A DNA stretch of 35,613 nucleotides, from positions 1-35,613 of IMG/VR virus record IMGVR_UViG_3300045988_137392; one strand, given 5' to 3'. Shown here piece by piece: positions 801 to 18,902 of this stretch. Every line of letters begins with the position of its first letter. Position 1 is the stretch's first letter. Source of the stretch: a virus. The position numbers and the translations under genes were made by a program. Under the pieces are notes generated by a model. The model searched no databases and was not told the DNA's origin. It saw nothing but the letters and a program-made list of their open reading frames with translations.

Positions 801-1292
801 ATGAAAAAGATTTTTATTTCTCAGCCGATGAATGGCAAGAGCAAGGAAGAGATCCTCGCAGCAAGAAACAATATGATCGCCAAGGCTTCGGAAAAACTCG
901 GAGATGAAGTGGAGGTTATCGACAGCTATTTCAAGGATTATGACCCTAAAAACGGCTGTATCCCACTGAAATATCTTTCAAAGGCTCTTGAACTGCTTGC
1001 CGATGCCGATATGCTTATTCTCGGTGATAATTGGGAAGCTGCCAGGGGCTGCCGAATTGAATTTATTTCCGCAATATCTTATGATATCCCTGCATATCAG
1101 TTCGATAGCAAGGGCGAGCTGGTCACTGCAAGGCATAACCCTATGGTCAAGCTTAAAGACAAGGAACCTATTTGCCTTATCGCTGACCTTCATATGTCGC
1201 CCGATGAATGCTATATCATTCACGGCTCCCACAAATTCTGTGATGATGTAACCCGTTTTACGGAAGACGATGTGGAGTTTATCATTATGTGA
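801..1292 (+). CDS. DUF4406 / nucleoside 2-deoxyribosyltransferase-like protein with about 60-aa C-terminal extension (163 aa)
   Basis: N-terminus MKKIFISQPMNGKS and LILGDNWEAARGCRIEFISAISYDIPAY resemble the DUF4406 pattern (MKIYISGP...GW..S.GA..E...A). ATG 801 lies after AAAGGA. Confidence 0.45.
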   Translation: MKKIFISQPMNGKSKEEILAARNNMIAKASEKLGDEVEVIDSYFKDYDPKNGCIPLKYLSKALELLADADMLILGDNWEAARGCRIEFISAISYDIPAYQFDSKGELVTARHNPMVKLKDKEPICLIADLHMSPDECYIIHGSHKFCDDVTRFTEDDVEFIIM

Positions 1293-1380
1293 TATGATAT
1301 CGCAAACGGCTATAAATCATATTTTGTTGAAGCCGACAAAACATATCCCCCTCGAAATCAAGGGGGGGTAAAAAGTAAAT

Positions 1381-1407
1381 CAGCAGCTTTACGGCTGCTT
1401 TTTTTAT
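1381..1407 (+). terminator. Intrinsic terminator
   Basis: Stem AGCAGC(1382-1387)/GCTGCT(1394-1399) followed by a T-run. Preceded by a second hairpin CCCCC(1347-1351)/GGGGG(within 1362-1368). Confidence 0.6.
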
Positions 1408-1482
1408 GCCCTAAACGTACTTACGGCGTTAAACTGAGGACGGAAAAAACAAGCCGACAGGCTATAAACGGAGGTAATCATA

Positions 1483-2094
1483 ATGGCAGAAACAAACACA
1501 ACCGTAACCGAAACCAACAAGGCTGAAAATGGCTCCACGGGAGCCTACGGAGGTGATCCCACACAGGCTGTAAAGGGCGGAGCAAATCTCCCTGAAAAGG
1601 CTGTATCTACGTCTGAGCCTGAGCAGACGGCAAAAACATTTACCCAGGCAGAACTTGACGCAATAGTCAAGCAGAGACTTGAAAGGGCGGCAAAGGGTCA
1701 GCCCTCAAAGGAAGAGATGGAAGCGTTCCGCAAGTGGCAGGACAGTCAGAAAACTGCCGAACAGCTTTCACAGGAAAAGATATCTGCTGCCGAAAATGGC
1801 AGGGCAGAGGCTGAGAAGAGAGCGCAGGCGGCTGAGGCTAAGTGCTGCGCTTATTCCAAGGGTGTAACTGCCGAGGCTGTAGATGACGTTATCGCCCTTG
1901 CCATGGCAAAGGTATCGGACGATATGCCCATTGAAAAGGCTATTGATGCGGTCATCTCAAAATACCCTTCTTTCTGCTCTGCGAAAAGCGCCCCTCAGGG
2001 TGTCACCACAGGGGTAAGCTTCGGGAACGGCGGCAAGCAGCCTTCGGGCGTAGAGGCGGCGTTCCTTGCGAAAAATCCCAACATAAAAATCTAA
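1483..2094 (+). CDS. Capsid scaffolding protein (DUF4355-like)
   Basis: Sits immediately upstream of the major capsid gene. Low-complexity N-terminus, FTQAELDAIVKQRLERA motif, Ala/Glu-rich helical middle. SD GGAGG. Confidence 0.7.
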   Translation: MAETNTTVTETNKAENGSTGAYGGDPTQAVKGGANLPEKAVSTSEPEQTAKTFTQAELDAIVKQRLERAAKGQPSKEEMEAFRKWQDSQKTAEQLSQEKISAAENGRAEAEKRAQAAEAKCCAYSKGVTAEAVDDVIALAMAKVSDDMPIEKAIDAVISKYPSFCSAKSAPQGVTTGVSFGNGGKQPSGVEAAFLAKNPNIKI

Positions 2095-4744: not shown

Positions 4745-5406
4745 TGTTACTGAAAGATATGTTCAAGGGGGTAAAGACTGACCCCAATTTCAAGGGCTTC
4801 CTGACCACTGACAATATGGTAATTGCGGTGGATATCTCGGAAGAGCAGAACGCTGATGTAGATGACTATGCTGTTGTCTGCTACGGCGGCGGTACCGACC
4901 GTTCTTCATCGCTGAACCCCGAGGAAAAGACCAACAGCTATTACTACAAGGGCAAATCTACCCTTAAAACAGGCAACCAGAGAAGCATTGACTTCACTGA
5001 GGACCGTTACATCGGCGATGAGTTCCAGGACTATGCGCTGAGCCATGAGCAGAAGTATGCCATCGGTCAGGCGGCTATCAAGAACTACGTTTATTTCAAC
5101 ACCCTCACAGGCGAGGGCGAAAAGGGCAAGGGCTCCCTTATCATCTCCGATGACGGAAGCGGCGCACCTGAGGAGAACCTCTCCATCAGCGGCAGCATCA
5201 AGAAGTCAGGCGACAACCCTGTTAAGTTCACCTATCAGGGCTTCGGCGGTTACACTGTGCTTGACAGCTCGCCTTCCGACTGGGCTACCAAATATGACAG
5301 CTACTATGAGCGCAAGGACGGCGCATTCGCAAAGCTTGTCAAGGGCAGCTCTGCGCCCGAATTTGCAAAGGGCAAGTATTACAGCAAGGACGGGGAAGCG
5401 GCGTGA
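4744..5406 (+). CDS. Major tail protein
   Basis: 220 aa, SD AAGGAGG. Sits before the chaperone pair and tape measure. Followed by a terminator, as is usual for highly expressed tail tube genes. Confidence 0.7.
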   Translation: MLLKDMFKGVKTDPNFKGFLTTDNMVIAVDISEEQNADVDDYAVVCYGGGTDRSSSLNPEEKTNSYYYKGKSTLKTGNQRSIDFTEDRYIGDEFQDYALSHEQKYAIGQAAIKNYVYFNTLTGEGEKGKGSLIISDDGSGAPEENLSISGSIKKSGDNPVKFTYQGFGGYTVLDSSPSDWATKYDSYYERKDGAFAKLVKGSSAPEFAKGKYYSKDGEAA

Positions 5407-5412
5407 TCATAC

Positions 5413-5438
5413 GGGGTCGATTTCGACCCCTTTTATTT
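5413..5438 (+). terminator. Intrinsic terminator
   Basis: GGGGTCGA(5413-5420) TT TCGACCCC(5423-5430) followed by TTTTATTTT. Confidence 0.65.
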
Positions 5439-5459
5439 TAAACTGAAAGGGTGGATTTT

Positions 5460-5780
5460 ATGGCATACAGATTTAAAGACCGCATTTGTACGGTAGAGAT
5501 CGAGGACAAGAAATATCCCATATCTTTTTCGCAGGCTATGTCCGAAAGGGTAACAGAGGCTGCTGTGAAGCTGAGAGAGCTTAAGGGCTGCAAAGATGAG
5601 GCTGCTGTTGTGGCTGCCATTGACAATGCTATTGACGCCGCTCTGGGTGACGGCTGCGCTGCTGAGATCTTCGAGGGCAGGACTGCTTCGGCTGTGGAGC
5701 GCCTGGACGTACTGAAATACATTCAGGTCGAGACTGCGGCGTTTACCGACCGCTTTGCCGATGTTCGCACCAAACAGTAA
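5460..5780 (+). CDS. Tail assembly chaperone (gpG-like position)
   Basis: 106 aa, ATG 5460 after GAAAGGGTGG. Lies between the major tail protein and the tape measure. Confidence 0.6.
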   Translation: MAYRFKDRICTVEIEDKKYPISFSQAMSERVTEAAVKLRELKGCKDEAAVVAAIDNAIDAALGDGCAAEIFEGRTASAVERLDVLKYIQVETAAFTDRFADVRTKQ

Positions 5781-6378
5781 GATACTGACCGTAAACGGCG
5801 TTAAGATACCCATTGACCCCGATTTCCGCATAATGTGCGAATACTCGGCGGCGGTGCTAAGGCGGTGCACCGAGGGGCTTACCGATATCGTGAGCCGCTT
5901 TTATTTTGCGGGGCTGCCCGAGGGCATAGGTGCTGCGAAAGCGGCGGAGGCTATGGACGAATTTTACGTCAGAGGGCTGTCGGCGGCAAAGGACAACAGC
6001 ACCATAGGCAGCAAGACCCCTGTCCCCTGCTTTGATTTTGCGGAGGACGAGGGGTATTTTTATGCGGCGTTCATGGGGGCATACAGCATTGACCTGAGGA
6101 CGGCAAAGCTTCACTGGCTGGACTTCTGCGCACTGTTCAAGGGGTTGCCCGATGACTGCAAGCTCAGACAGATAATCGGCATAAGGGCGCAGAACCTTGG
6201 CGAGATAAAGTCAGGCGCAGAGCGCAAGAGGATATCAAAGCTCAAAAGTATTTACGGGCTCAAGGTAAAGGTCAAGCGCAGATTTGAAGCTGCAGCTGAC
6301 CGCAACGCTGCCATTGCTGCCGACCTTAAACGCAGGGCTGAGGAAGCTGAAAAGAAAATGCGGGAGGTGAGAAAATGA
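5755..6378 (+). CDS. Second tail assembly protein (Phage_Gp15-like / gpT-like position)
   Basis: 207 aa. Overlaps the preceding gene in the +1 frame. Only TTG 5755 or ATG 5761 are available as starts and neither has an SD. ILTVNGVKIPIDPDFRIMCEY resembles Gp15-family N-termini. Confidence 0.5.
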   Translation: MPMFAPNSKILTVNGVKIPIDPDFRIMCEYSAAVLRRCTEGLTDIVSRFYFAGLPEGIGAAKAAEAMDEFYVRGLSAAKDNSTIGSKTPVPCFDFAEDEGYFYAAFMGAYSIDLRTAKLHWLDFCALFKGLPDDCKLRQIIGIRAQNLGEIKSGAERKRISKLKSIYGLKVKVKRRFEAAADRNAAIAADLKRRAEEAEKKMREVRK

Positions 6379-9300
6379 GTGAAGCGGGCGAGATAAAATA
6401 CAAGATCACGGGCGATGACAACGGGCTGAAAGCCTCCCTCGACAATGCCAAGAGGCAGGCAGAACAGACTGCTGCATCTATGGCAGCGGCGAGTGACAGC
6501 ATCGAACAGGTAGGCACGAATGCAGCGGCGGCGGCAACAGCTCTGAGCAGCACGGCTTCTGCGGCTGCAAGGGCTGCCGAAAACACGTCACAGGCGGCGG
6601 CAGGGGCTGAAAGAATGGGGGCTTCCGTATCAGCGGCTTCCGGAAGCATTGCTTCCTTTGCCAACAGCTCACAGGCATTTATGCAGGGGCCTCTTGCCCA
6701 GATGGGGCAGGTGTCCTCGCAGGCTCAGGGCGTTGTGCGTGACCTTGACGATGTGGGCAATGCAGCTCAGAACGCTGGTCAAAAAGGCGAGGAAGCAGGA
6801 AAAAAGGGCGAAAGCGCTCTGGGAAAGATAGGCTCTGCGGCGGGCAAGGCGGCACTGGAGATAGGCAAGATATCTCTTGCGGCTGTGGGTGCTGCGTCTG
6901 CGGCGGTAGGGGCTGTTTCCAAGGCGGCTATTGACAGCTATGCCAACTACGAGCAGCTTGTAGGCGGCGTTGAAACGCTGTTCGGCGATTCCGCCGATGT
7001 GGTCAAGGGCTATGCGGAAGAGGCTTTTTCCACTGTGGGAATGTCCTGCAATGATTATATGGAAACTGTCACAGGCTTTGCGGCTTCTCTTGTCAGCAGT
7101 CTTGGCGGTGACACTGCCACTGCAGCCCAAAAGGCTAACACTGCCGTTGCTGACATGGCAGATAACGCCAACAAGATGGGCACTGATATGCAATCTATAC
7201 AAAATGCGTATCAGGGATTTGCAAAGCAGAACTATACAATGCTTGACAACCTAAAATTAGGCTATGGCGGCACGAAAGAGGAAATGGAGCGGCTTCTTGA
7301 AGAGGCTGAAAAAATTCAGAAAACCAAATTCGGCGTTGATGTTGATTATGATGTTTCCAGCTTTTCGGATATTGTTGACGCTATTCACGTTGTGCAGACT
7401 GAAATGGGCATTTCAGGTCTTACCGCAAAGCAGGCAGCGGAAGCTGTTGCAAGCGGGGCTATGACTGAGGAAGAAGCTTTTGACGCAATGGGAACAACGG
7501 CAAAGGAAGCTTCTACCACCATTCAGGGCTCCATCGCCACAATGCAGGGAGCATGGCAGAACCTTATGACAGGCATTGCCGACCCTGCGCAGGATTTTGA
7601 TAAGCTGCTGGGTGATGTTATTGACAGCGTTGTTACGGTTTCAAACAATCTTATGCCCCGAATTATGGCGGTACTGCCGCAGATGGCAACAGGCATTACA
7701 GAGCTTACCGAAAATCTTCTGCCCCTTATTCCCGACACGCTGGAACAGATGCTGCCTTCCGTTATTGAGGGCGCTAACAGCCTTATTGCGGCGCTGCTTG
7801 ATACTCTCAGCTCCATTGCTGACACTGCCATACCCATTGTTACGGAAAACGCAGATGAGATAATAAACACTCTGCTGTCGGGGCTTATCTCGGCAATTCC
7901 CAGCCTTGCATCTTCTGCGGCTGACCTTTGCACGGCGCTTATAACGGCAATACTCGACAATGCCGACATCATCACACAGGGTGCTGTGGATATTGTGCTG
8001 GCTCTGGCTCAGGGGCTGACGGACAATCTGGACAGCCTTGTTCCTGCGGTGGTAAATGCAGCTCTGACGATAACCGAAACGCTGCTGGACAATGCGGACA
8101 AGCTTATTGACGCAGGCGTGCAGCTTATCGGAGCCATTGCGGAGGGACTTGCGGCATCAATCCCGCAGCTTTTGCAGCAGGCGCCTGTTATCATCGAAAA
8201 GCTTGTGGTCGCCCTGATGGACGCAGGACAGGCGCTGATAACCGATGTGCCTAAGTCTATTTGTGAAAACATAGTAAGCGGTCTTAAATCATTTGACTGG
8301 ACTGAGGGTGCCAACAGCACCATTGCAGGACTTAATGAGGCTATGGAAAAGGCTGCTGACAATATGGCAAAAGATGACGGTTATGTTGTGCTTGGGTCAC
8401 AGGAAGAGGCGGACGCACGTTTGCAGGCAGCTCTGGACGAGCTGGAAGCCAAGAACGGAGGGCTGACAGGAGCATACAAGGAGCTTGCGGACAGTCTGAG
8501 CGCCTCGGCTGATGACACGGCAGAGGCGGCGGAGGAAGCAGGCACAACTGTTTCCGAGGCTATAGCTGACAGTATGCCCGATGCAGGCGTTGACGGCGTG
8601 GTAGATAAGTCGGAAATGCTTGATGCGGCGCTCAAGGAGCTGGAGGACAAATATGCTGTCCACAAGGTCACGGAAGAAGAATACTGGGCAGGCAGAAAAG
8701 CCGCATTAGAGCAGTACCGCAATGAGGAAGATGCTGAGTGGTGGAAGCTTTATGACAAGGTGACGGAGCATTATGACAAGCTTGCGGACACCGAGGCAAA
8801 GGCGGCTGAAAAGGCTGCAAAAGAAGCGGAGCAGGCTAAAAAGGACGCTGAAAACGCCCTGAAAACTTCCGTCGAGGACAAGTTCCGAGAAATTGAAACC
8901 GAGCAGCTGGAAAAGGGCTATGACGACAGCTGGCTGCTGGAGCAGGAGAGGGCATTTATTGAGACCCTTGACCACAATTCGTACACGTATCAGGACTACA
9001 ACCTCAAGCTGCTGAAAGAACAGAAAAGCTATGATGACAAGGCTCTGAAAGAGGTTGAAACCGCTGCCAAAAAGCAGCGGGACACTCTTGAAAAAGCCTA
9101 TGACAGCGTTGTAAAATCCCGTGACAGTCTGGCAAGCAGTCTGAAAGGCAGCAGTGGCGATATCTTCAACAGCTCTGAGGAAACGGACAAGCGGACGGGG
9201 GCTAAAACCAAGTCAAACAAGATAGACCTTAGCGGATTTGAGAAAAAGCTGGCTGCCAAGAAAAAGCTGACATCAAAAATCGCCGAGCTGTACGAAAAAA

Positions 9301-10295: not shown

Positions 10296-11249
10296 GTGGC
10301 CACAACGGAATTTTCCTGTGATGTATGGTCGGCTGTGCCGTTTATCGAGGGCAGCAAGGTAACATTTAACGGCTATTTGCTGCCTGATTTTTACATTGCC
10401 CAGCAGTCCTATTCTGGCGGTGTGGCAAGCATCACGGCGTATGACCTATGCAAAAATCTGGATATTCCATTTGATTACAGTAATTACACACAGTTTGACA
10501 CTGACGGAAAGACGCTGAAATGGTATCCGACTGCTCAAATCGTGGGGGCGGTTGCCTCCCAGTGCGGTTTCACCGAGGGCGGATATTCGGGGCGCATGGC
10601 ACAGCTGTGCTATCAGGATTTTGCCGGCAAGACGTGCAGGGTCATACTCAGCGACCTGTCCCACAATGACGTGGGATACTGGCATGACGGCGGCGGTGTG
10701 CTGGCGTTTGTGCCATTTTCTGCGCCCTCTTCGGGGCTGGATATGCCTGCGGAAAGCGACAGGACGGAGATCATCAGGCGGGGCACCAAGCACATTACAG
10801 GCGTATATGCCACTGATGAGGCATATGGCAACGAGTATGCCTCGGGCTCCGACTGGCGGCACACGGAGCGCATTTCGGGACGGTATCTGACTGAGGCGGC
10901 TGTACAGCAGATGGTATCGCAGATAGTCGGCAGCGGCGGTGAGTACGCATATCACGGCTGGGAATGTTCGCAGATGATCACTGATTATTTGTACAACATT
11001 GGTGATTTCCTTGCATACGGCGGCGACAAGCTTCCTGTGCTGATTGTTGATTTTGATTTCACGGGACTGGGAATCGTGGCTGATGTTTCTGCGCCTGAGG
11101 CGGATTGCAGTTTCAGTGAGTATCATGATTTGTACAGCAGGGCTATTGAAAATCGGGTAAAGCTGGGCAAGAAACATGGCTGCATGATGTTCGGTGAAAA
11201 CGGGCTGAGTTTTGTGTGCCAAAAGGAGGCGAAAGTCAACAGTGGCTGA
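10296..11249 (+). CDS. Tail tip/baseplate protein (5' end uncertain; frame open from 10167)
   Basis: 317 aa from GTG 10296 (weak AAGGGA SD). The same frame is open and coding-like for 33 further codons upstream, without a canonical start. Confidence 0.6.
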   Translation: MATTEFSCDVWSAVPFIEGSKVTFNGYLLPDFYIAQQSYSGGVASITAYDLCKNLDIPFDYSNYTQFDTDGKTLKWYPTAQIVGAVASQCGFTEGGYSGRMAQLCYQDFAGKTCRVILSDLSHNDVGYWHDGGGVLAFVPFSAPSSGLDMPAESDRTEIIRRGTKHITGVYATDEAYGNEYASGSDWRHTERISGRYLTEAAVQQMVSQIVGSGGEYAYHGWECSQMITDYLYNIGDFLAYGGDKLPVLIVDFDFTGLGIVADVSAPEADCSFSEYHDLYSRAIENRVKLGKKHGCMMFGENGLSFVCQKEAKVNSG

Positions 11250-11484
11250 GCATTATGATCCGCTGGAATTTGAGGACTTAGGCGACAAGCTGTTCCGCAA
11301 ATGCGGAAGCATGGATATTGTCTGCGAATATCCGCTAGTATCCTTCGATCGCATTGATGGCGAGACTTCAGGCAAGGCGATATATGAATATGGACCGTAC
11401 ATTATTACGGTGACGTATGATATTGACGGCGGGAAACGCAAAAATGCACACTGGACGAGGGTGTATAAGGAGGCGGGCGGATGA
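11242..11484 (+). CDS. Hypothetical tail-module protein (80 aa)
   Basis: GTG 11242 lies 12 nt after AAAAGGAGG. TTG 11212 is an alternative start. Frame of track ORF 11212-11484. Confidence 0.4.
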   Translation: MAEHYDPLEFEDLGDKLFRKCGSMDIVCEYPLVSFDRIDGETSGKAIYEYGPYIITVTYDIDGGKRKNAHWTRVYKEAGG

Positions 11485-12272
11485 TTTTAGACGGTGGGCT
11501 TATTTTACAGGCGCTGGCAGGTGGGGGAACCTCGGGTGGCGGCAAGGTCAAGCCCATAACTATAACGGAAAACGGCACATACAATGTTTCCGACGCTGAA
11601 AAGGCTGAGGGGTATGTGGGATTTGCGCCTGTGACGGTTGATGTGCCGCAGAGCTGTTTGAATATGTGTGATTTGTTTGAGCAGCAGACACCAATCGCAG
11701 TTATACCGCTGTTTGGAGACTACACCGCCAAACTGGTACAGCTGCCTGAGGGGGTATGGCAAAGTCGGATTAGACAATACCAAACCTACATTTATGGAAA
11801 TAATTATGAAACCTATTGTAGCGATGATAGAAAAATCATTACTTGCATTCTAGGTGTTTATCGTGGCGATACACTGCTTTATCTTGGCTATCCCACAACT
11901 AGTGATAGTTCGCAGGACGGTTACAGTGCAGAGAATGTTTATGACGATGACGGCAACATTATAGCGGTAAATGTGTGGAAATCGCACAATGTGATGTGGA
12001 CGTACCGATTTTCTGAGATGACTGTTTCAGAAAATGTAAATATCACATCATTTTATAAATACATACAGGTGCCAACGGCAGGGATTACAACCTATTACGC
12101 ATCGGATGGTACAGTGACAGAAAACACATTTAAAAGCACGTGGAATTTAACCATTAGTGTGGGTGGTTCTGATTGGTGGTTCACCCGATTTACGGGCGAT
12201 GAACTGATAGCCCAAATGGATATCTGTGCGCAAGATGTATATGCTGAGTATCGGAAAAGACAATCAACCTAA
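11481..12272 (+). CDS. Putative tail fibre / receptor-binding protein
   Basis: ATGA overlap. The N-terminus GGGKVKPITITENGTYNVSDAEKAEGYVGFAPVTVDVP is a motif I recognise from tail-fibre N-termini of Clostridia phages. The distal two thirds are visibly more AT-rich. Confidence 0.5.
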   Translation: MILDGGLILQALAGGGTSGGGKVKPITITENGTYNVSDAEKAEGYVGFAPVTVDVPQSCLNMCDLFEQQTPIAVIPLFGDYTAKLVQLPEGVWQSRIRQYQTYIYGNNYETYCSDDRKIITCILGVYRGDTLLYLGYPTTSDSSQDGYSAENVYDDDGNIIAVNVWKSHNVMWTYRFSEMTVSENVNITSFYKYIQVPTAGITTYYASDGTVTENTFKSTWNLTISVGGSDWWFTRFTGDELIAQMDICAQDVYAEYRKRQST

Positions 12273-12283
12273 GGAGGATATTT

Positions 12284-12700
12284 ATGGTAAAAGAAGTAAA
12301 AGGCTGCAACAGGGTCATCGAGATCACCCTTGACGGCACTGAATGCGCTGTGAAATTTGATGCTAAATACAACGGTTTTGATATCCGCAACAAGTCGGGC
12401 AAGGATATCACAGTATCCCTGAAATCGGGTGCTGCCAAGGGCGATGATGGCGTTATCACCATTGGAGACGGCGAGACGTTCAACTATATGCACATGATGG
12501 GGCTGGACACTGTATATATCACAGGTTCGGGTGCTGTGGCTGTGGCGGCTAAAAACGAGGCAGCGGCAAATTTTAAGGCGGTTCGGAAAGGGGGTGGAAG
12601 CGGCATGAAAACAGGCGGTATAACGTTGCACGGACAGGTCCTGCCGATTTATGCGGTGGGAGAAGCTGTTGATATTGCAGATACGGAGGTTATAGGATAA
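12284..12700 (+). CDS. Hypothetical protein (tail/lysis-adjacent)
   Basis: 138 aa, SD AAGGAGG 6 nt upstream. Confidence 0.5.
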   Translation: MVKEVKGCNRVIEITLDGTECAVKFDAKYNGFDIRNKSGKDITVSLKSGAAKGDDGVITIGDGETFNYMHMMGLDTVYITGSGAVAVAAKNEAAANFKAVRKGGGSGMKTGGITLHGQVLPIYAVGEAVDIADTEVIG

Positions 12701-13371
12701 TGGGAAAGCTTTACAAATATCAGCCTACGCTGGGTATGTCGAAAGATGACAGGACACAGGCTAACTACACTGCCAAAATTATTGCATGGTTACATTCTGT
12801 GGAAGATTTGCTGACAACTGTCGCTGACATCACATATACAGAAAACGGTTGCACACTAACACCTAAGTTTACTAACATCAACAGCAAGGTTATTGCCGTT
12901 GAGGTAAATAGTAGCAGCAGCTATGTGGTATCAACTAAGACAGGCAACCAGTCTCCTGCCTGGTCATCATCAAGCGTTGCTCTTAGCGGAGACCCGTATC
13001 TCTATATCATCTCTGATACGGATATGGTTGGACTGGGTCTGGGCACTACACCGTGGTGTTGTTCTATCCACTCGGCTACCAAATTTGACGGCACTGAGTG
13101 CGGCGTTGAGGTTACTGCGGATACCTATAATCTTGTCTGGTTTATTGGAAATGGTGTTCAAAACGGCACGTCTCAATATTACGGAACGGAAGCGGTCGGC
13201 ACTACTTCGTCGTATTGCATGAAGCCGTTTACATTTGCGGCTTCAGGGGTTATCCAAAATCATGTTATGTCCGCCGACGGCGGTATGGAAAAACCTGTCC
13301 GAGGCAGTGTCTTTACAATCGGCGATGACACATATGTCGGAATGGTCGGCAATTTCGTTCTGAGGGTGTAA
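12700..13371 (+). CDS. Hypothetical protein (223 aa)
   Basis: TAATG overlap with the upstream gene. Long ORF with no competing frame. Confidence 0.5.
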   Translation: MGKLYKYQPTLGMSKDDRTQANYTAKIIAWLHSVEDLLTTVADITYTENGCTLTPKFTNINSKVIAVEVNSSSSYVVSTKTGNQSPAWSSSSVALSGDPYLYIISDTDMVGLGLGTTPWCCSIHSATKFDGTECGVEVTADTYNLVWFIGNGVQNGTSQYYGTEAVGTTSSYCMKPFTFAASGVIQNHVMSADGGMEKPVRGSVFTIGDDTYVGMVGNFVLRV

Positions 13372-13383
13372 GGAGGAATAAAA

Positions 13384-13809
13384 ATGGACAAATTTACGGA
13401 ATTTATCAAGATTTTATGCGGCGGCATAGTTACTGCCATATCGGGATTTTTCGGCGGTATGGACGGCATTATGTATGCGCTGGTGGCGTTTATCACCATT
13501 GACTACATAACAGGCGTGGCGGTAGCGGTGAAACGCAGAGAGCTGTCCTCGGAGGTGGGATTCTGGGGTCTGGTGCGCAAGGTCTGCATCGTGGCGCTGG
13601 TAGGCGTGTCACATTTTGTTGATGTTTATGTCATGCACACAGGCGATATTTTCAGGACGGCTATTGCGCTGTACTACATAGGCAACGAGGGCATATCGCT
13701 GTTAGAGAACATCGGCAATCTGGGTGTTAAGCTGCCCAAGAAGCTGATCGACGTGCTGGAACAGATACGTGACGATAATTCGGGGGAGGGCAAAAATGAT
13801 GAGCATTAA
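13384..13809 (+). CDS. Holin (phage_holin_4_1 / TcdE-like family)
   Basis: 141 aa with three hydrophobic segments. DYITGVAVAVKRRELSS and YIGNEGISLLENIGNLGVKLPKKL are characteristic of the family. Directly upstream of the endolysin. Confidence 0.8.
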   Translation: MDKFTEFIKILCGGIVTAISGFFGGMDGIMYALVAFITIDYITGVAVAVKRRELSSEVGFWGLVRKVCIVALVGVSHFVDVYVMHTGDIFRTAIALYYIGNEGISLLENIGNLGVKLPKKLIDVLEQIRDDNSGEGKNDEH

Positions 13810-14497
13810 CATCAAAATGGATACAGGCACTGCCAACACCACTGTTGCCAAAGGGCGATCCATCGAATGGATAGTGATCCACTACACGGCAGGCACATCA
13901 TCGGCTGCGGGTAGCGCACACAATCTTGCGGCATGGTTCAGGGCGGGAGCAAATCCCGCCAATCCTGCCAGCGCTGATTTTATCGTGGATGATAAAAATG
14001 TTGTCTGCTATAATCCTGACATTGCAAACCGTTATTCATGGGGCGCAGGCGGGGTAAAATACACCAAGATGTCCACATCTGAGGGTGGTAGGTATTACGG
14101 CAAGTGCAGGAACAGCAACTGCATCAACATTGAGATTTGCAGCAACAAGAAAAACAGGAAGTCTCTGAGCGCAGATGACACGGACTGGTATTTCACCGAT
14201 GCAGAGCTGGCATTGGCTGCTGAGCTGGTCAAGCATCTGATGAAAACATACGGCATTTCAGCTGACCATGTTATAATGCACCACCAGGTGACCGGCAAGC
14301 TGTGCCCTGCTATGTGGACACATTCGGAGGCAGAGCTTGAGGGCTGGAAGAAGTTCCGGCAAATGTTTATGCCTGCTGTCGAAAGCAATCAGATGTTTTA
14401 TGTGCAGGTCGGGGCTTTTAAGTCTCGTAAGAACGCCGAAGCATATTTGGCAAAGGTCAAGAAAGACTATCCAAGTGCGTTTATTAAGGTGATGTAA
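13796..14497 (+). CDS. Endolysin: N-acetylmuramoyl-L-alanine amidase (Amidase_2/PGRP) with C-terminal SPOR domain
   Basis: IEWIVIHYTAG, ADFIVDD and HHQVTGKLCPA motifs. The C-terminus MFYVQVGAFKSRKNAEAYLAKVKKDYPSAFIKV is SPOR-like. ATG 13796 lies after GGGGGAGGG. Confidence 0.85.
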   Translation: MMSINIKMDTGTANTTVAKGRSIEWIVIHYTAGTSSAAGSAHNLAAWFRAGANPANPASADFIVDDKNVVCYNPDIANRYSWGAGGVKYTKMSTSEGGRYYGKCRNSNCINIEICSNKKNRKSLSADDTDWYFTDAELALAAELVKHLMKTYGISADHVIMHHQVTGKLCPAMWTHSEAELEGWKKFRQMFMPAVESNQMFYVQVGAFKSRKNAEAYLAKVKKDYPSAFIKVM

Positions 14498-14503
14498 AAA
14501 TTT

Positions 14504-14537
14504 TCTCCCGCTCTCGATTGAGGGCGGGAGATTTTTT
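14504..14537. terminator. Near-perfect 28-bp palindrome flanked by A/T runs: bidirectional terminator between the lysis genes and int
   Basis: TCTCCCGCTCTC(14504-14515) GATT GAGGGCGGGAGA(14520-14531), then T6. AAAAATTTT lies upstream. Confidence 0.7.
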
Positions 14538-14566
14538 GTTTAGGGAAAAGTAAAAGCGCCGAGAAG

Positions 14567-16111
14567 TTATTCCCGACGCTTTTTGATTACCATACAGCCG
14601 CATATTATCGAAACGGTTTGTATGTTTTTGTTTTGGCTCCCCAGCGCAGAGGGAGCACAATCCGCTGAGGAGCTATCTGACACGGCTGAGAGCGGTATAT
14701 CAACGCTTTTGCCGTCCTTGTCCTTGAAAATGACCGTGAGCTTGTCGTCGTAAACATACACCTTTGATATCATGATGTCGGCGATAGCTTTCTTGCCCTC
14801 GGTGGTGTTGATATCGGTTGCAAGGATATCATCTATAAACACGGTGATCTGCTCCACTGATGGCACATTGTCGGTCATTGCCTGCGACAATCGGAGGGCA
14901 GAACTGAGTTGTTCCTTGCGCTCTTCCAGCTCCCTGACCTTATCATAAAGCAGCTGATTTCCGCCTGTCTGAGCTATGGCGTTCACAACGTTCTCAGCCT
15001 GCTTAGTGCATTCGGTCAGCTCCTTTTCCAGTTCGGCAGGCGCATACTCATTTCTGACCGTCTGCAAATACATCTGATAAATGGTCTCGGCAGTCTCCGC
15101 CTTGTCCATCTGCTCAAATGCTGACCGTGCTGCTCTGCATACCTCGTCCTCTATCAAATATTTATTTTCCAGCTTCTTGTGGCAGCCTGACTTTTTCTGC
15201 ACGCCGTTACAGCGGTAATAATAGTGCTTGACCCCGTTGCGTCCTGTGCCTGACAGCCCGCTCATGGGCTCTCCGCAGTGACCGCAGTATAATTTACCCG
15301 ACAAATAATAATCGGCTTTGGCGGTGTTCTTGGCGGCTCTCTTGCGGTTGGTTATCAGCTTTTCTCTTACAGCCTCAAAAACTTCATTGGGTATCATCTG
15401 CGGTATTCCTCCCTCGATCACTATATCGTCGTATTTGTAAATGCCTATGTATTTTTCATTAGCCAGCATATTGTAAAAACTGTTTGTGGTGAACGGCCTG
15501 CCTCGGCAGTTGCGATAGCCCTGGGCGTTCAGATGCTCGGCTATGTCGGTGAGCCTCTCCCCTTCTGCGTACATCCTGAACACAGTTTCGGGGATAATTC
15601 GGGTCTCATCATCAATGACCAGCTTCTTGTCAACGACCTTGTACCCTAACGGGATATGTCCCGTTGTCTGAGCCTTCATTGCCGACTGGCGCATTCCTCG
15701 GATAGTCTTTTCCCGAAGATCGGCGCTGTAGTATTCGTTTATTGCTTCAATGATATGGGTCATCATCTGACCGCTGGCATCGTCCCCGAAGCTCTCCATG
15801 ACGGACAGCAGCTTCACGCCGTTTTTAGCTAAAATCTGACGGTTTACGGCACTGTCTATGGTGTTGCGTGCAAAGCGGTCAAGTTTCCACACAATAACAC
15901 TATCCCACTTGTGCATGGCGCTTTCATGAAGCATCTGCTGGAAGGCGGGACGGTCGTCATTTTTACCTGTCATGGCTCGGTCTATGTATTCCTGCACGAC
16001 TGTTATGCCGTGCTGCTTGGCGTAGTTGTAGCAGTCATAAAGCTGTCCCTCGATGGACTGCTCCGTCTGCTTGTCCGAAGAGTATCGGGCGTATATTACG
16101 GCGGTTTTCAT
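14567..16111 (-). CDS. int: Large serine recombinase (integrase)
   Basis: 514 aa. N-terminal resolvase domain (AVIYARYSSDKQ...WKLDRFARN), recombinase domain, zinc ribbon (CGHCGEPMSG...YYRC), coiled-coil C-terminus. SD AAGGAGGA. Confidence 0.9.
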   Translation of the reverse strand: MKTAVIYARYSSDKQTEQSIEGQLYDCYNYAKQHGITVVQEYIDRAMTGKNDDRPAFQQMLHESAMHKWDSVIVWKLDRFARNTIDSAVNRQILAKNGVKLLSVMESFGDDASGQMMTHIIEAINEYYSADLREKTIRGMRQSAMKAQTTGHIPLGYKVVDKKLVIDDETRIIPETVFRMYAEGERLTDIAEHLNAQGYRNCRGRPFTTNSFYNMLANEKYIGIYKYDDIVIEGGIPQMIPNEVFEAVREKLITNRKRAAKNTAKADYYLSGKLYCGHCGEPMSGLSGTGRNGVKHYYYRCNGVQKKSGCHKKLENKYLIEDEVCRAARSAFEQMDKAETAETIYQMYLQTVRNEYAPAELEKELTECTKQAENVVNAIAQTGGNQLLYDKVRELEERKEQLSSALRLSQAMTDNVPSVEQITVFIDDILATDINTTEGKKAIADIMISKVYVYDDKLTVIFKDKDGKSVDIPLSAVSDSSSADCAPSALGSQNKNIQTVSIICGCMVIKKRRE

Positions 16112-16122
16112 TTAATTCCTCC

Positions 16123-16151
16123 TTGACTTTTCTTGGAGGATATGGTATAAT
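16123..16151 (+). promoter_or_regulatory. Sigma-70/SigA-type promoter, divergent from int
   Basis: TTGACT(16123-16128), 17-nt spacer, TGgTATAAT (extended -10; TATAAT at 16146-16151). Confidence 0.55.
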
Positions 16152-16157
16152 TCACAT

Positions 16158-16232
16158 TGTATGAATGGTGAATGTACCACATTCTCCTGCGCTCCGAGAG
16201 ATGTTCCAGCATCTTTTGGGGCGTTTTTTTTT
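16158..16232 (+). ncRNA. Candidate small RNA of about 75 nt (promoter to terminator, no credible ORF)
   Basis: Predicted start is about 7 nt after the -10. Hairpin GGTGAATGT(16167-16175)/ACATTCTCC(16179-16187). It ends at the terminator at 16190-16232. Confidence 0.35.
16190..16232 (+). terminator. Intrinsic terminator (plus-strand orientation)
   Basis: 14-bp stem 16190-16203/16210-16223 (includes three G:U pairs), loop TTCCAG, followed directly by T9 (16224-16232). Confidence 0.65.
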
Positions 16233-16241
16233 ATTTATCTC

Positions 16242-16270
16242 TTGATATGTAATAAAATATATGATATAAT
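16242..16270 (+). promoter_or_regulatory. Sigma-70/SigA-type promoter
   Basis: TTGATA(16242-16247), 17-nt spacer, TGaTATAAT (TATAAT at 16265-16270). Confidence 0.55.
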
Positions 16271-16317
16271 ATAAATATATACATATCGATATTACAAGAT
16301 TTGAAAGGGTGTTTTAT

Positions 16318-16599
16318 ATGAAAATAACTATTCCACGCTCCGCAGATTATTCATTATATCGCACTGTATCACGACTTAAAAATGTAAGCGAACGGGAAGA
16401 TATTACAGTAGAACAGCTAAAACCGTTTATCAACAAATTAGCTGAATTGGTATGCGAAGATGCAAATTTGGATTTTGCATCAATAAATCTTGGCTTTGTA
16501 CCACCGAGCAAAAGCTTTGATGATGTGGGCAAAGAACCAATTCACAAAATTGTAAGCTTAGAGGGTGACACCATTATGGGTAAAAGCGGTATGTTCTGA
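16318..16599 (+). CDS. Hypothetical protein (93 aa), convergent with and overlapping the cyclase-like gene
   Basis: ATG 16318 lies 8 nt after GAAAGGG and downstream of the 16242 promoter. No TM segment or motif recognised. The 3' end overlaps the minus-strand gene by 42 bp. Confidence 0.5.
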   Translation: MKITIPRSADYSLYRTVSRLKNVSEREDITVEQLKPFINKLAELVCEDANLDFASINLGFVPPSKSFDDVGKEPIHKIVSLEGDTIMGKSGMF

Positions 16600-17385
16600 A
16601 TCTCTTTTCTTTGCTCTTTTCATATATTCCTTAAGCCAAACGTATTTTTCTCTTACTCCCGGATTCTTTTCAGTTGCAAGTTCATCAGATATTTTTTTAT
16701 TAAATTTATCAATTAAGTTTGAAAATCCTTTCTTTTGTTCCTCGGTTTCGGCATTGGCTTTTCCCTGATGCATAAGGAAGAATAAGTAATCAACAAAATT
16801 GAAATAATCATTTTTATCTACTTCTATCGCTGTTGAAAGAATATTGAAATCTCTGTTGAAATTTTCTACTAAATAATCTTCTAAAAGTTCCGTAGTAAAA
16901 ATAACACGTGGGAATTTTGCATTTTGACTTTCAAGTAAATATGCATCATTCAACGCAGGACCATATACTTTGTTTTCAAATGCAAAAAAATCTCCTTTGG
17001 ATATTCCACCCCTGAATAGAACGCCATAGTCTTTGAAGCACTTAATTATCAATGAGCATATAACAAATACCAGTACATCTAATGAGCATTTCCTATCACT
17101 TGGAACTGATATAACAACACTGTCTGAAATAAGATTTAAAGTTATCTCCTCAAAAACACTATCCAGATATTCTTTAGTTATCCTGGAAGTTTCCGACACA
17201 TCATCAATATAAAATTTACAGCTATTCACGCATTCTTCCATAAGGTTAAATATATCAGAACATTCACTTGTCTTAATAAGCTCCTTAAAACCCAGAATAT
17301 CTAAAAAAGCGACATAACAATCACGATACTCAATCTTTTTTGCTTTATTTGCAGAATCTACAATCTCATTTAATTTGTCAACCAT
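16558..17385 (-). CDS. Class III nucleotidyl cyclase / palm-domain-like protein with uncharacterised helical C-terminal region (275 aa)
   Basis: ATG 17385 lies 8 nt after AGGAG. Ordered motifs: YVAFLDILGFKELI, LNLISDSVVISVP, VLFRGGISKGDFF, VYGPALNDAYLLES. The track ORF start at 17538 is rejected because it overlaps immA and has no SD. Confidence 0.55.
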   Translation of the reverse strand: MVDKLNEIVDSANKAKKIEYRDCYVAFLDILGFKELIKTSECSDIFNLMEECVNSCKFYIDDVSETSRITKEYLDSVFEEITLNLISDSVVISVPSDRKCSLDVLVFVICSLIIKCFKDYGVLFRGGISKGDFFAFENKVYGPALNDAYLLESQNAKFPRVIFTTELLEDYLVENFNRDFNILSTAIEVDKNDYFNFVDYLFFLMHQGKANAETEEQKKGFSNLIDKFNKKISDELATEKNPGVREKYVWLKEYMKRAKKRDSEHTAFTHNGVTL

Positions 17386-17410
17386 ATTTTCATCTCCTGA
17401 ACATTTCCTC

Positions 17411-17448
17411 TCTCCCCGTCTGCCATCGAATGGGGAGATTTTTATTTT
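17411..17448 (+). terminator. Intrinsic terminator oriented on the plus strand, inside the minus-strand operon
   Basis: TCTCCCC(17411-17417)/GGGGAGA(17432-17438) followed by TTTTTATTTT. On the minus strand the hairpin has no U-tract. Confidence 0.55.
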
Positions 17449-17492
17449 AAAAAGGTAGATTAATTGTATTGACCCCATCCCCGCCTTACATT

Positions 17493-18095
17493 TTATCCCG
17501 TGATAGTATAAGCAGCTCCAAAATTGTTCATATAGCACTCCATAGCCTCGCTGTATTTGTACAGTAACTCGTCTTCTCGGTATGATTGCCGGATAAATTT
17601 CTTATTTAGGGTGTCAATGCGCTTATTAGCAGCTGTAAATGACAGCCCGAATAAGTCATGAATATTATCCCACATTATCGGTATCTTCTTAGCCATATTT
17701 CGTATAATGCTTTCAGGAGCCAATAATTCTGCTGCAAACCAATGTGCTTCTACTTCTTGACTTGTACCATCCGTATCGTGTCCTAAATAAATGTGACCAA
17801 TCTCATGCGCAAGTGTCCAATTCAAATGCTCATAACTAGAAAAATCAGCGTTATATAATACAAGATAAAGGTCATCACATATAATCGTATACCCATCCTC
17901 TAAAGACTTATCTGGTTCAAGCTGTTTTACATTTATACCTGTTATTGATGCATAATTTTGGTATGTATCAATAACTATAGGCATATCGAACTCCATTGTT
18001 CTTACGTCAAGATTAAGATCATCGTAACTTTGAAAAAGTCTTAAATCACGAGCTTTTATCTCAGCTATATCAAAATTAGGTCTATCAATGTCCAT
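17493..18095 (-). CDS. immA: ImmA/IrrE-family zinc metallopeptidase (anti-repressor protease)
   Basis: 200 aa. HEIGHIYLGH followed by EVEAHWFAAELLAP (the HExxH...E...A..FA..LL.P signature). TAATG overlap with the repressor gene. Confidence 0.8.
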   Translation of the reverse strand: MDIDRPNFDIAEIKARDLRLFQSYDDLNLDVRTMEFDMPIVIDTYQNYASITGINVKQLEPDKSLEDGYTIICDDLYLVLYNADFSSYEHLNWTLAHEIGHIYLGHDTDGTSQEVEAHWFAAELLAPESIIRNMAKKIPIMWDNIHDLFGLSFTAANKRIDTLNKKFIRQSYREDELLYKYSEAMECYMNNFGAAYTITG

Positions 18096-18793
18096 TAGTT
18101 CTCCTTTTTGTCCAACCCAATCGCTTTTCTGTACATATTAATTGTGCTATTTATTGTCTTTATTAGATCATCCCGCTTATCGCTTGGTATCTCTTCAAGA
18201 TGCCGAGCGACTATTTTTATATCTTCATCAGCATAGGCCTCTTTCATCGCCTCATTTTCAGCAGCGTATTTCATTCTTTCCCATGTTCGAACATCATCGT
18301 GATACTGATCAGGAACTAATTCTGAGTATTGATTATTATCAAAAAGAACTTGTGATACATTTGTACCTAAAAAATCACACAAAACTTCCGCTTGATTGTA
18401 TGACAATGGCAGAGTCCCATCTTCACATTCGCTATATTGTTCGGGCAAAACCCCTATTTTAGCAGCCATTTCTTCTATCGAAACGCCCTGTTCTTCCCTT
18501 ATGCCCTTGAGCAGCTCAGCAAATTCAAATGGGGGCTCAAAGAAAGGCATATAATGCCCCCACCCACTATAGTATTCTCCAATTTCATTATTATTTCTCA
18601 ACTGGGATTTTCCAGTCAGCCAATCAACGGATACATTAAAATAATCAGCTATTTTTTGCAAGGTAGCCGTTTTGGGTGTGGCACGCCCATTTTTCCAATC
18701 GGAGAGCGTAGTTTGCGTTACTCCCGTTTCCTTCGACACCCTATATGGGGTGATATTATTTTCTTGTAACAACTGCACAAAACGTTCGTACAT
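18095..18793 (-). CDS. Phage repressor with two XRE-type HTH domains (ImmR/CI-like)
   Basis: N-terminal HTH ITPYRVSKETGVTQTTLSDWKNGRATP. A second HTH-like segment sits around LLKGIREEQGVSIEEMAAKIGVLPEQYSECEDG. ATG 18793 lies 7 nt after AAAGGTG (ATG 18799 is an alternative). Divergent from cro. Confidence 0.75.
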   Translation of the reverse strand: MYERFVQLLQENNITPYRVSKETGVTQTTLSDWKNGRATPKTATLQKIADYFNVSVDWLTGKSQLRNNNEIGEYYSGWGHYMPFFEPPFEFAELLKGIREEQGVSIEEMAAKIGVLPEQYSECEDGTLPLSYNQAEVLCDFLGTNVSQVLFDNNQYSELVPDQYHDDVRTWERMKYAAENEAMKEAYADEDIKIVARHLEEIPSDKRDDLIKTINSTINMYRKAIGLDKKEN

Positions 18794-18848
18794 AATCATA
18801 CACCTTTCACAAAAAACACAATAATCGTAAAATCTTTAGCATTTTCTA

Positions 18849-18877
18849 TTGACTACTCGTAAAAAGTGTAGTATTAT
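18849..18877 (+). promoter_or_regulatory. Early rightward promoter (cro operon)
   Basis: TTGACT(18849-18854), 17-nt spacer, TATTAT(18872-18877). The spacer contains TCGTAAAA. Confidence 0.5.
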
Positions 18878-18902
18878 ATACTTGTAAGAAGCTGAGTAGC
18901 AA
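18873..18902 (-). promoter_or_regulatory. Candidate repressor promoter, with -10 overlapping the rightward -10
   Basis: Minus strand: TTGCTA(18897-18902), 18-nt spacer, TATAAT(18873-18878). Confidence 0.35.

Follow-up and report, generated by a model that had tools for sequence, protein, structure and literature searches.

A stand-alone cyclase-fold protein in the immunity region of a temperate phage belongs to a large family of candidate anti-phage enzymes

Results

A cyclase-fold gene between the immunity genes and the integrase

The 35,613-nucleotide stretch of viral DNA analysed here (IMG/VR record IMGVR_UViG_3300045988_137392, positions 1 to 35,613; hereafter the window) looks like the genome of a temperate phage, an identical copy of which is integrated in Huintestinicola butyrica strain Sanger_06. 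Its immunity region holds, on the minus strand, an open reading frame (ORF) whose translation is a stand-alone cyclase-fold protein of 275 residues (16558-17385). We call it gene X, and its product, WP_262573043.1 of H. butyrica, carries only the name 'hypothetical protein' in public records. Directly upstream, on the same strand, lies a gene for an ImmA-like peptidase (17493-18095; Peptidase_M78, Pfam PF06114, E 5.8e-12), preceded in turn by immR, which encodes a double helix-turn-helix (HTH) repressor (18095-18799, minus strand; HTH_3 in two stretches, 4.9e-20), while downstream of gene X follows a large serine recombinase, the integrase (14567-16111, minus strand; Pfam Resolvase, Recombinase and Zn_ribbon_recom). 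An original prediction, made from the letters alone, had proposed an orphan cyclase-like gene in this AT-rich slot between immA and the serine integrase, and its description of the gene was borne out. ATG 17385 follows an AGGAG Shine-Dalgarno (SD) sequence (17394-17398, minus strand, 8 nucleotides 5' of the ATG), the same product is called on many metagenome contigs, and the GC content across gene X is 0.33-0.35, compared to ~0.45-0.55 in most of the window. The four predicted motifs are also present, in order and at the residues assigned to them, with D29 within YVAFLDILGFKELI, D88 within LNLISDSVVISVP, R125 within VLFRGGISKGDFF and the fourth motif, VYGPALNDAYLLES, after R125.

Gene X encodes a class III cyclase fold with an intact metal site

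At E<=1, gene X matched no family in Pfam-A, NCBIfam or PADLOC-DB, so that a direct hit to the PF00211 or PF00990 profile, envisaged in the original prediction, was not obtained (hmmscan against Pfam-A). Neither the protein nor the family profile, when searched by sequence against the PDB, gave more than chance matches, and the only families matched were two PHROGs of unknown function, phrog_23933 (1.3e-32) and phrog_21097 (3.8e-13). An AlphaFold2 model of the protein, for which an alignment of 55 homologues (A1) served as input, reached a predicted local distance difference test score (pLDDT) of 87.9 and a predicted template-modelling score (pTM) of 0.86. As assigned by DSSP, the model has the topology β1(21-30)-α-α-...-β2(82-86)-β3(89-95)-α(101-120)-β4(124-136), in which D29 lies at the end of β1, D88 in the β2-β3 hairpin and R125 at the start of β4. 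Foldseek comparison of the model with the PDB yielded 47 matches at E<=1e-3. Every one of the best 50 was a class III adenylyl/guanylyl cyclase catalytic domain, the first being Spirulina CyaC (1wc3, E 1.2e-5). Template-modelling (TM) scores over the target ranged from 0.5 to 0.67, the highest (0.67) being that of Ma1120 from M. avium (5d0g). Cya2 (2w01) and the Pycsar uridylate and cytidylate cyclases 8jsz and 8jsf were among the matches, Cas10, mCpol and GGDEF structures were absent from the PDB top 50, and the matches in BFVD were giant-virus cyclase-domain proteins only.

Profile comparison assigned the same residues to catalytic positions. When six real cyclase-domain sequences, taken from PDB alignments, were profile-aligned to A1 with hhalign, the match (probability 87.8%, E 3.3e-6, 138 columns, query residues 25-179) placed D29 on the first metal-binding Asp (F-x-D-I-x-G-F-T), D88 on the second (G-D), R125 on the phosphate-binding Arg of R-I-G-I-H-x-G, and G142, A148 and E152 on the G..VN.A.R.E helix. 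The class III cyclase-like core that had been read from the letters is thus recovered by both structure and profile. The suggested kinship with GGDEF domains was not, as hhalign to two such domains (PleD, 7e6g) gave 0.1%, a weak negative in view of the shallow profile; gene X also lacks the GGDEF/GGDD motif and has I-S-D-S in the equivalent place.

Taken from the model, Foldseek, hhalign and residue invariance, the cyclase-homology (palm) core spans residues ~21-179 (16849-17325, minus strand), with the codons of D29 at 17299-17301, D88 at 17122-17124, R125 at 17011-17013 and R160 at 16906-16908. It is followed by a family-specific C-terminal extension (residues ~180-264; 16594-16848, minus strand), a small hairpin and three helices modelled at a pLDDT of 88-95, which has no counterpart in the hhalign comparison with cyclase domains. 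The part of the protein behind the motifs had been described as holding no recognised motif, a description that no longer holds, as it contains P159-R160 and, in the extension, a near-invariant K247-Y-x-W (K247 codon 16645-16647, minus strand).

D29, D88 and R125 are invariant in the 55 homologues, which argues that the cyclase-motif pattern in gene X did not arise by chance. Counts over ~200 diverse family members, whose sequences are otherwise only 20-35% identical, show the same invariance of key residues: D29 is kept in 198/198, D88 in 199/199 and S87 in 197/199 sequences, R125 and G126 in 200/200, G131 and G142 in 198/200, A148 in 195/200, P159-R160 in 197/200 and K247, in the C-terminal helix, in 190/191. 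Moreover, gene X has a ratio of nonsynonymous to synonymous substitution rates (dN/dS) of 0.20 relative to a 70%-identical homologue, indicating purifying selection. We are therefore highly confident that gene X encodes a cyclase-fold protein with an intact two-metal site.

The family is large and recurs inside type I restriction-modification operons

A word-indexed search found 54 matches to gene X, and an exhaustive phmmer search found 4,912 representatives (at 50% identity) at E<=1e-3, with 815 at E<=1e-10, in many phyla and in archaea. Homologues are carried by 44 plasmids, every one annotated 'hypothetical protein', and public records hold no name for the family; nor did we find a description of it in the literature searched, which took in DefensePredictor, a domain-centric screen for defence genes, Pycsar structures and Panoptes. 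No homologue was detected by tblastn (E<=1e-5) in 50,697 GenBank phage records. On viral contigs, terminase, portal and head(-protease) genes are among the neighbours of family members. A divergent sub-branch on IMG/VR contigs (L106-L110), which probably corresponds to phrog_21097, keeps D29, D88 and R125 and lacks R160 and K247, and it may occupy a different 'moron' position.

To describe the genomic setting of the family, we took 94 loci from genomes and viral contigs together with the loci from the preceding searches, which reduced to 85 non-redundant loci with crude gene calls; their 586 neighbours within ±4 genes fell into 529 clusters. The only recurrent neighbours were subunits of type I restriction-modification (R-M) systems, with hsdS directly upstream in 10/85 loci, hsdM directly downstream in 8-9/85 and hsdR two to four genes upstream in 9, and bulk Pfam scans confirmed these genes (Methylase_S 10; N6_Mtase/HsdM_N 8). 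About 12-15% of the loci have the family member between hsdS and hsdM. In two of them, L012 and L015, the family gene and the hsdS stop overlap, as do the family gene and the hsdM start in L012, which points to translational coupling. Members embedded in R-M operons share only 25-65% identity with one another and occur in Bacillota, Fibrobacterota and Pseudomonadota; given this divergence across three phyla, the association must be recurrent rather than a single inherited event. One type I R-M operon, in a Ruminococcaceae metagenome-assembled genome (L034), contains tandem paralogues (4966-5829 and 5995-6822). We considered and rejected a degenerate heterodimer of the C1/C2 style for this pair, as both copies keep all key residues.

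Apart from the type I R-M subunits, the 586 neighbours include no conserved partner gene, no cyclic nucleoside monophosphate (cNMP)-binding, TIR, CARF or SAVED family is recurrent at ±2, and the family neighbourhoods examined hold no membrane effector partner. The predicted orphan status, with no adjacent effector, therefore applies to the window and to the family as a whole. Other neighbours with a defence function are diverse: ToxN with PhdYeFM, AbiEii, AbiH, DpnII, BglII, DNA methylases, AAA_21/AAA_15, an SNase/HNH/NERD island, ThsB (2e-107), PDC-M36A and a TIR protein. The homologues thus sit in mobile and defence contexts and not among housekeeping genes, with the exception of some loci such as P0035. 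Some 10% of members carry an additional XRE HTH domain of the Cro/C1 type, fused N-terminally in P0061, P0104, P0136 and P0007 and C-terminally in a few (P0004, P0056); these fusions keep the catalytic residues, and no other fusion partner was seen.

In L115, whose gene X homologue is 70% identical and whose ORF93 (the small convergent gene described below) is 73% identical to that of the window, a 342-residue TIR-domain protein (876-1904, minus strand, the same strand as X; PADLOC TIR-TM 1e-36, Pfam TIR_2 1.4e-4) follows ORF93 in place of the integrase. It has no detectable cNMP-binding domain; it may act as an effector at this locus or be just another defence gene of the same hotspot. In a Bacteriovoracaceae genome (L113/L114, 3945-6915), a distant member overlaps the stop of a gene for a 358-residue nucleoside-deoxyribosyltransferase-like protein and lies two genes after a Thoeris ThsB gene (2e-107); this locus may be a multi-gene variant system.

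Gene X travels with the integrase

The identical gene X protein is called on contigs in 154 collection blocks, mostly human-gut metagenomes. In 6/6 places shown, the gene order is HTH repressor, variable genes, X, convergent 93-residue ORF and serine recombinase, where the variable genes are ImmA, a 350-residue DUF4236 protein or small ORFs; in several siblings the DUF4236 protein stands in place of ImmA directly upstream of X. Sibling prophages have the block 14633-17419/17454 in common at 87-99% nucleotide identity, comprising the integrase, ORF93, gene X and 35-70 nucleotides upstream of X, while the immR/immA side is replaced. X therefore belongs to the integrase-proximal side, and integrase, ORF93 and X form one exchangeable module. 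Gene X and the convergent ORF had been predicted to be wedged into an immR-immA-int module; that gene order stands, and a simple insertion does not, since X and the integrase move as one unit. In another phage, the corresponding slot, flanked by a cI/cro-like pair and a tyrosine integrase, is taken by a distant homologue with an HTH fusion (P0007, 32% identity). Gene X has the location of a prophage 'moron', being part of the repressor/integrase module, on the repressor strand, distinct in composition and mosaic among related phages. In the sibling prophages of L004-L009, genes of the kind that mobilisable elements carry, for RepA_N, MobC/NikA-like, relaxase and sigma-70 region 4 proteins, lie 3' of the integrase (~10900-16800, locus coordinates). 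An integrative mobilisable element may therefore be the target of the phage or its place of residence.

Expression in the lysogen is plausible. A promoter-like site 5' of the repressor gene (TTGCTA-18-TATAAT; 18873-18902, minus strand; 10/12, consensus match only) faces immR, and a sequence scan found no minus-strand terminator-like site between immR, immA and gene X, which makes read-through from the repressor promoter into X plausible. immR, immA and X thus probably form a single lysogen-expressed operon. In the repressor of the window, residues 9-61 and 92-148 form two distinct XRE HTH domains, whereas ImmR of the ICEBs1 type has one.

ORF93 (16318-16599, plus strand) is a convergent gene of 93 codons that overlaps the 3' end of gene X by 42 nucleotides and is called on sibling contigs. 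It appears to be a real gene, with an SD and a dN/dS of 0.23 outside the overlap, and a strong sigma-70-like promoter site (TTGATA-17-TATAAT with a TG; 16242-16270, plus strand; 11/12, consensus match only) precedes it. The pairing of ORF93 with an X homologue persists in L115, a locus in which another gene has taken the place of the integrase, and ORF93 may act locally as a regulator or partner of X. It is lineage-restricted, with only three close homologue clusters; on this ground, and with convergent downstream ORFs elsewhere unrelated or spurious, we discarded it as a family-wide partner, and its similarity to a small ORF in L010 is insignificant (E 0.034). The AlphaFold2 model of ORF93 has a pLDDT of 48, and a fold search with this low-confidence model gave no matches; its predicted N-terminus (β-α-α) gives the impression of a ribbon-helix-helix protein. 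Just 5' of the X start, at the mosaic junction, the plus strand carries a 9-bp GC-rich hairpin followed by TTTTTATTTT (17411-17449; fold z-score of -2.0 only), a possible terminator for transcription that starts at the ORF93 promoter and crosses the whole of X in the antisense direction. The hairpin is absent from the diverged sibling L115, and we did not retain it as a general regulator.

Discussion

Gene X has in common with the class III cyclase homology domain (CHD, PF00211) the palm fold and strand order, F-x-D-I-x-G-F at the end of β1, an Asp in β2-β3, R-x-G-I-x-x-G at β4 and a G...A..xE helix. It differs in that the PF00211 hidden Markov model is not matched even at E<=1, homology being visible by profile-profile comparison only, in that the second Asp motif is S-D-S and not G-D, in the lack of a conserved transition-state Asn/Arg and base-specifying pair, in the extra helical C-terminal extension of ~85 residues with its invariant Lys, and in that XRE HTH is the sole fusion partner in the family, sensor and transmembrane domains never being attached. 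Since the fold and the two-metal/phosphate core are kept, the purine-cyclising residues are absent and the family has an invariant Arg and Lys of its own, gene X is best described as a member of a distinct family of the cyclase-homology fold and not of PF00211. Cyclase-fold enzymes in immunity are known; what is new here is that the protein stands alone, has its own set of active-site residues and carries a new domain at its C-terminus.

We favour the reading that gene X encodes a soluble class III cyclase-fold enzyme acting as a lone, mobile-element-borne anti-phage gene, of the abortive-infection or exclusion type, within a large family, and hold this full reading to be evenly balanced. That gene X is a defence or exclusion gene is, taken by itself, moderately probable, and among the functions that the original prediction had listed the context favours defence or exclusion over a decoy or counter-defence. 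On this favoured reading, the lysogen would transcribe X at the end of an immR-immA-X operon, and superinfection would activate the enzyme, which would bind a nucleoside triphosphate (NTP) and direct a two-metal attack of the 3'-OH on the α-phosphate with release of pyrophosphate. R125, R160 and K247 would hold the triphosphate in place of the absent class III Asn/Arg/Lys set, and either the NTP pool would be drained or a toxic or inhibitory nucleotide made, so that phage replication would be blocked. As the cyclisation-specific Asn/Arg are absent, the enzyme may make something other than a 3',5'-cNMP, and it is just as possible that the reaction is intermolecular, in the manner of GGDEF, Cas10 or mCpol enzymes.

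Several points weigh against this reading. The match of the fourth motif to G-x-x-V-N-x-A-x-R-L-E-S, as originally predicted, is partial: G142, A148 and E152 align, whereas the position of the class III transition-state Asn (N146) is V/I/T/N in the family and that of the transition-state Arg (L150) is variable. Equally, N84 and K139, which from CHD numbering and the hhalign alignment we take to be the base-specifying positions (Lys/Asp for ATP, Glu/Cys for GTP), are highly variable, and with these residues absent cyclisation itself is uncertain. The PADLOC PycC model does not match X, the XRE-HTH fusions could point to a regulatory role, some loci look housekeeping, co-transcription of immR, immA and X rests solely on consensus scans, and the defence role is one of guilt by association.

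In an unlikely alternative, X is the signal-making half of a split, Pycsar-like pathway whose effector lies elsewhere in the host or element or is one of the variable neighbours, for instance a TIR protein. The cyclase PycC is a cyclase-fold anti-phage enzyme found on mobile elements and in defence islands, and Pycsar cyclases of the same fold are among the structural matches of X, though weak ones (8jsz and 8jsf; PMC11224242). The TIR-domain defence gene near the 70%-identical homologue and the distant member after ThsB and the deoxyribosyltransferase-like gene could be read in the same way. Pycsar, however, is a two-gene system whose effector (PycTM or PycTIR) carries a cNMP-binding domain (PMC11224242), while the X family has no conserved effector and the neighbours in the window are ImmA, ORF93 and the integrase. 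No receptor family recurs in the 85 loci, the window and all sibling prophages are without such a receptor gene, and the TIR protein of L115 shows no cNMP-binding domain. A family that extends over many phyla and archaea would require a universal, unlinked receptor, and the PycC model is not matched.

It is improbable that X regulates prophage lysis-lysogeny or induction as a nucleotide-making or nucleotide-sensing module working with the HTH repressor. X does lie directly 3' of immR-immA on the same strand, about a tenth of the family is fused at either terminus to a Cro/C1-type HTH, and in L010 an HTH::X fusion stands beside a cI/cro-like pair and an integrase. In that locus, however, the main cI-like repressor is a separate gene, the siblings swap immR/immA while X stays with the integrase, and the commonest conserved context of the family is the type I R-M operon, with other members on plasmids and in prophage-free defence islands.

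A phage counter-defence function, in which X makes a decoy nucleotide or depletes an immune nucleotide of the host, could be argued from its place on a phage genome, as nucleotide-based immunity is common and targeted by phages (PMC12657230). We consider it very improbable: the majority of homologues are found on chromosomes or plasmids, sharing operons with genes for host defence, the tblastn search of GenBank phage records yielded none, and in prophages X is on the lysogeny (repressor) side and not among early lytic genes. That X has the palm fold but no catalytic activity, and serves solely for structure or binding, as the absent transition-state and base-specifying residues might suggest, is scarcely credible when the metal Asp pair, R125, the flanking Gly/Ser, R160 and K247 are invariant in ~200 sequences and both L034 paralogues keep all key residues.

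The favoured reading, a lone anti-phage enzyme, has partial parallels. mCpol, Cas10 and GGDEF proteins are small palm-domain nucleotide cyclases, a description that X would share. mCpol of Panoptes is a minimal stand-alone palm enzyme in defence that is Cas10-like and works with a 2TM-beta effector (PMC12657230), whereas the neighbourhoods of X hold no membrane effector partner. The PrrC anticodon nuclease gene lies inside the EcoprrI type I hsd operon and is read as a latent suicide back-up to restriction (PMC3874165), and X homologues are likewise embedded in hsdR/M/S operons, between hsdS and hsdM. This is an analogy of context and not homology, as the fold and chemistry of X are unrelated to those of PrrC and the copy in the window is in a prophage and not in an R-M operon. 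By this analogy, those X homologues that lie in R-M operons may stand guard over the R-M complex as a back-up. To our knowledge, the cyclases validated in defence so far (cGAS-like, PycC, Cas10/mCpol and DAC) all work with effectors, and those of CBASS, Pycsar, type III CRISPR and Panoptes are all understood as effector-paired signal generators.

A bolder proposal, which we advance only tentatively and regard as doubtful, is that X founds a very large class of one-protein immune enzymes that combine sensor and effector. Infection, or in R-M operons a phage anti-restriction protein that disables type I restriction, would cause such an enzyme to convert the NTP pool to a new cyclic or linear nucleotide and so arrest the cell or phage without a receptor, with the C-terminal helices as the regulatory switch and as the source of the invariant Lys in the active site.

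The X family has thousands of members in bacteria and archaea, with a two-metal core and no partner, in type I R-M operons and in prophage immunity regions. Should gene X serve in defence, the protein would be an effector of the cyclase fold that needs no second protein and may make a new nucleotide, and the family could be a second widespread case of a PrrC-type back-up to restriction. If true, a large set of 'hypothetical proteins' from gut and environmental genomes would thereby gain a function.

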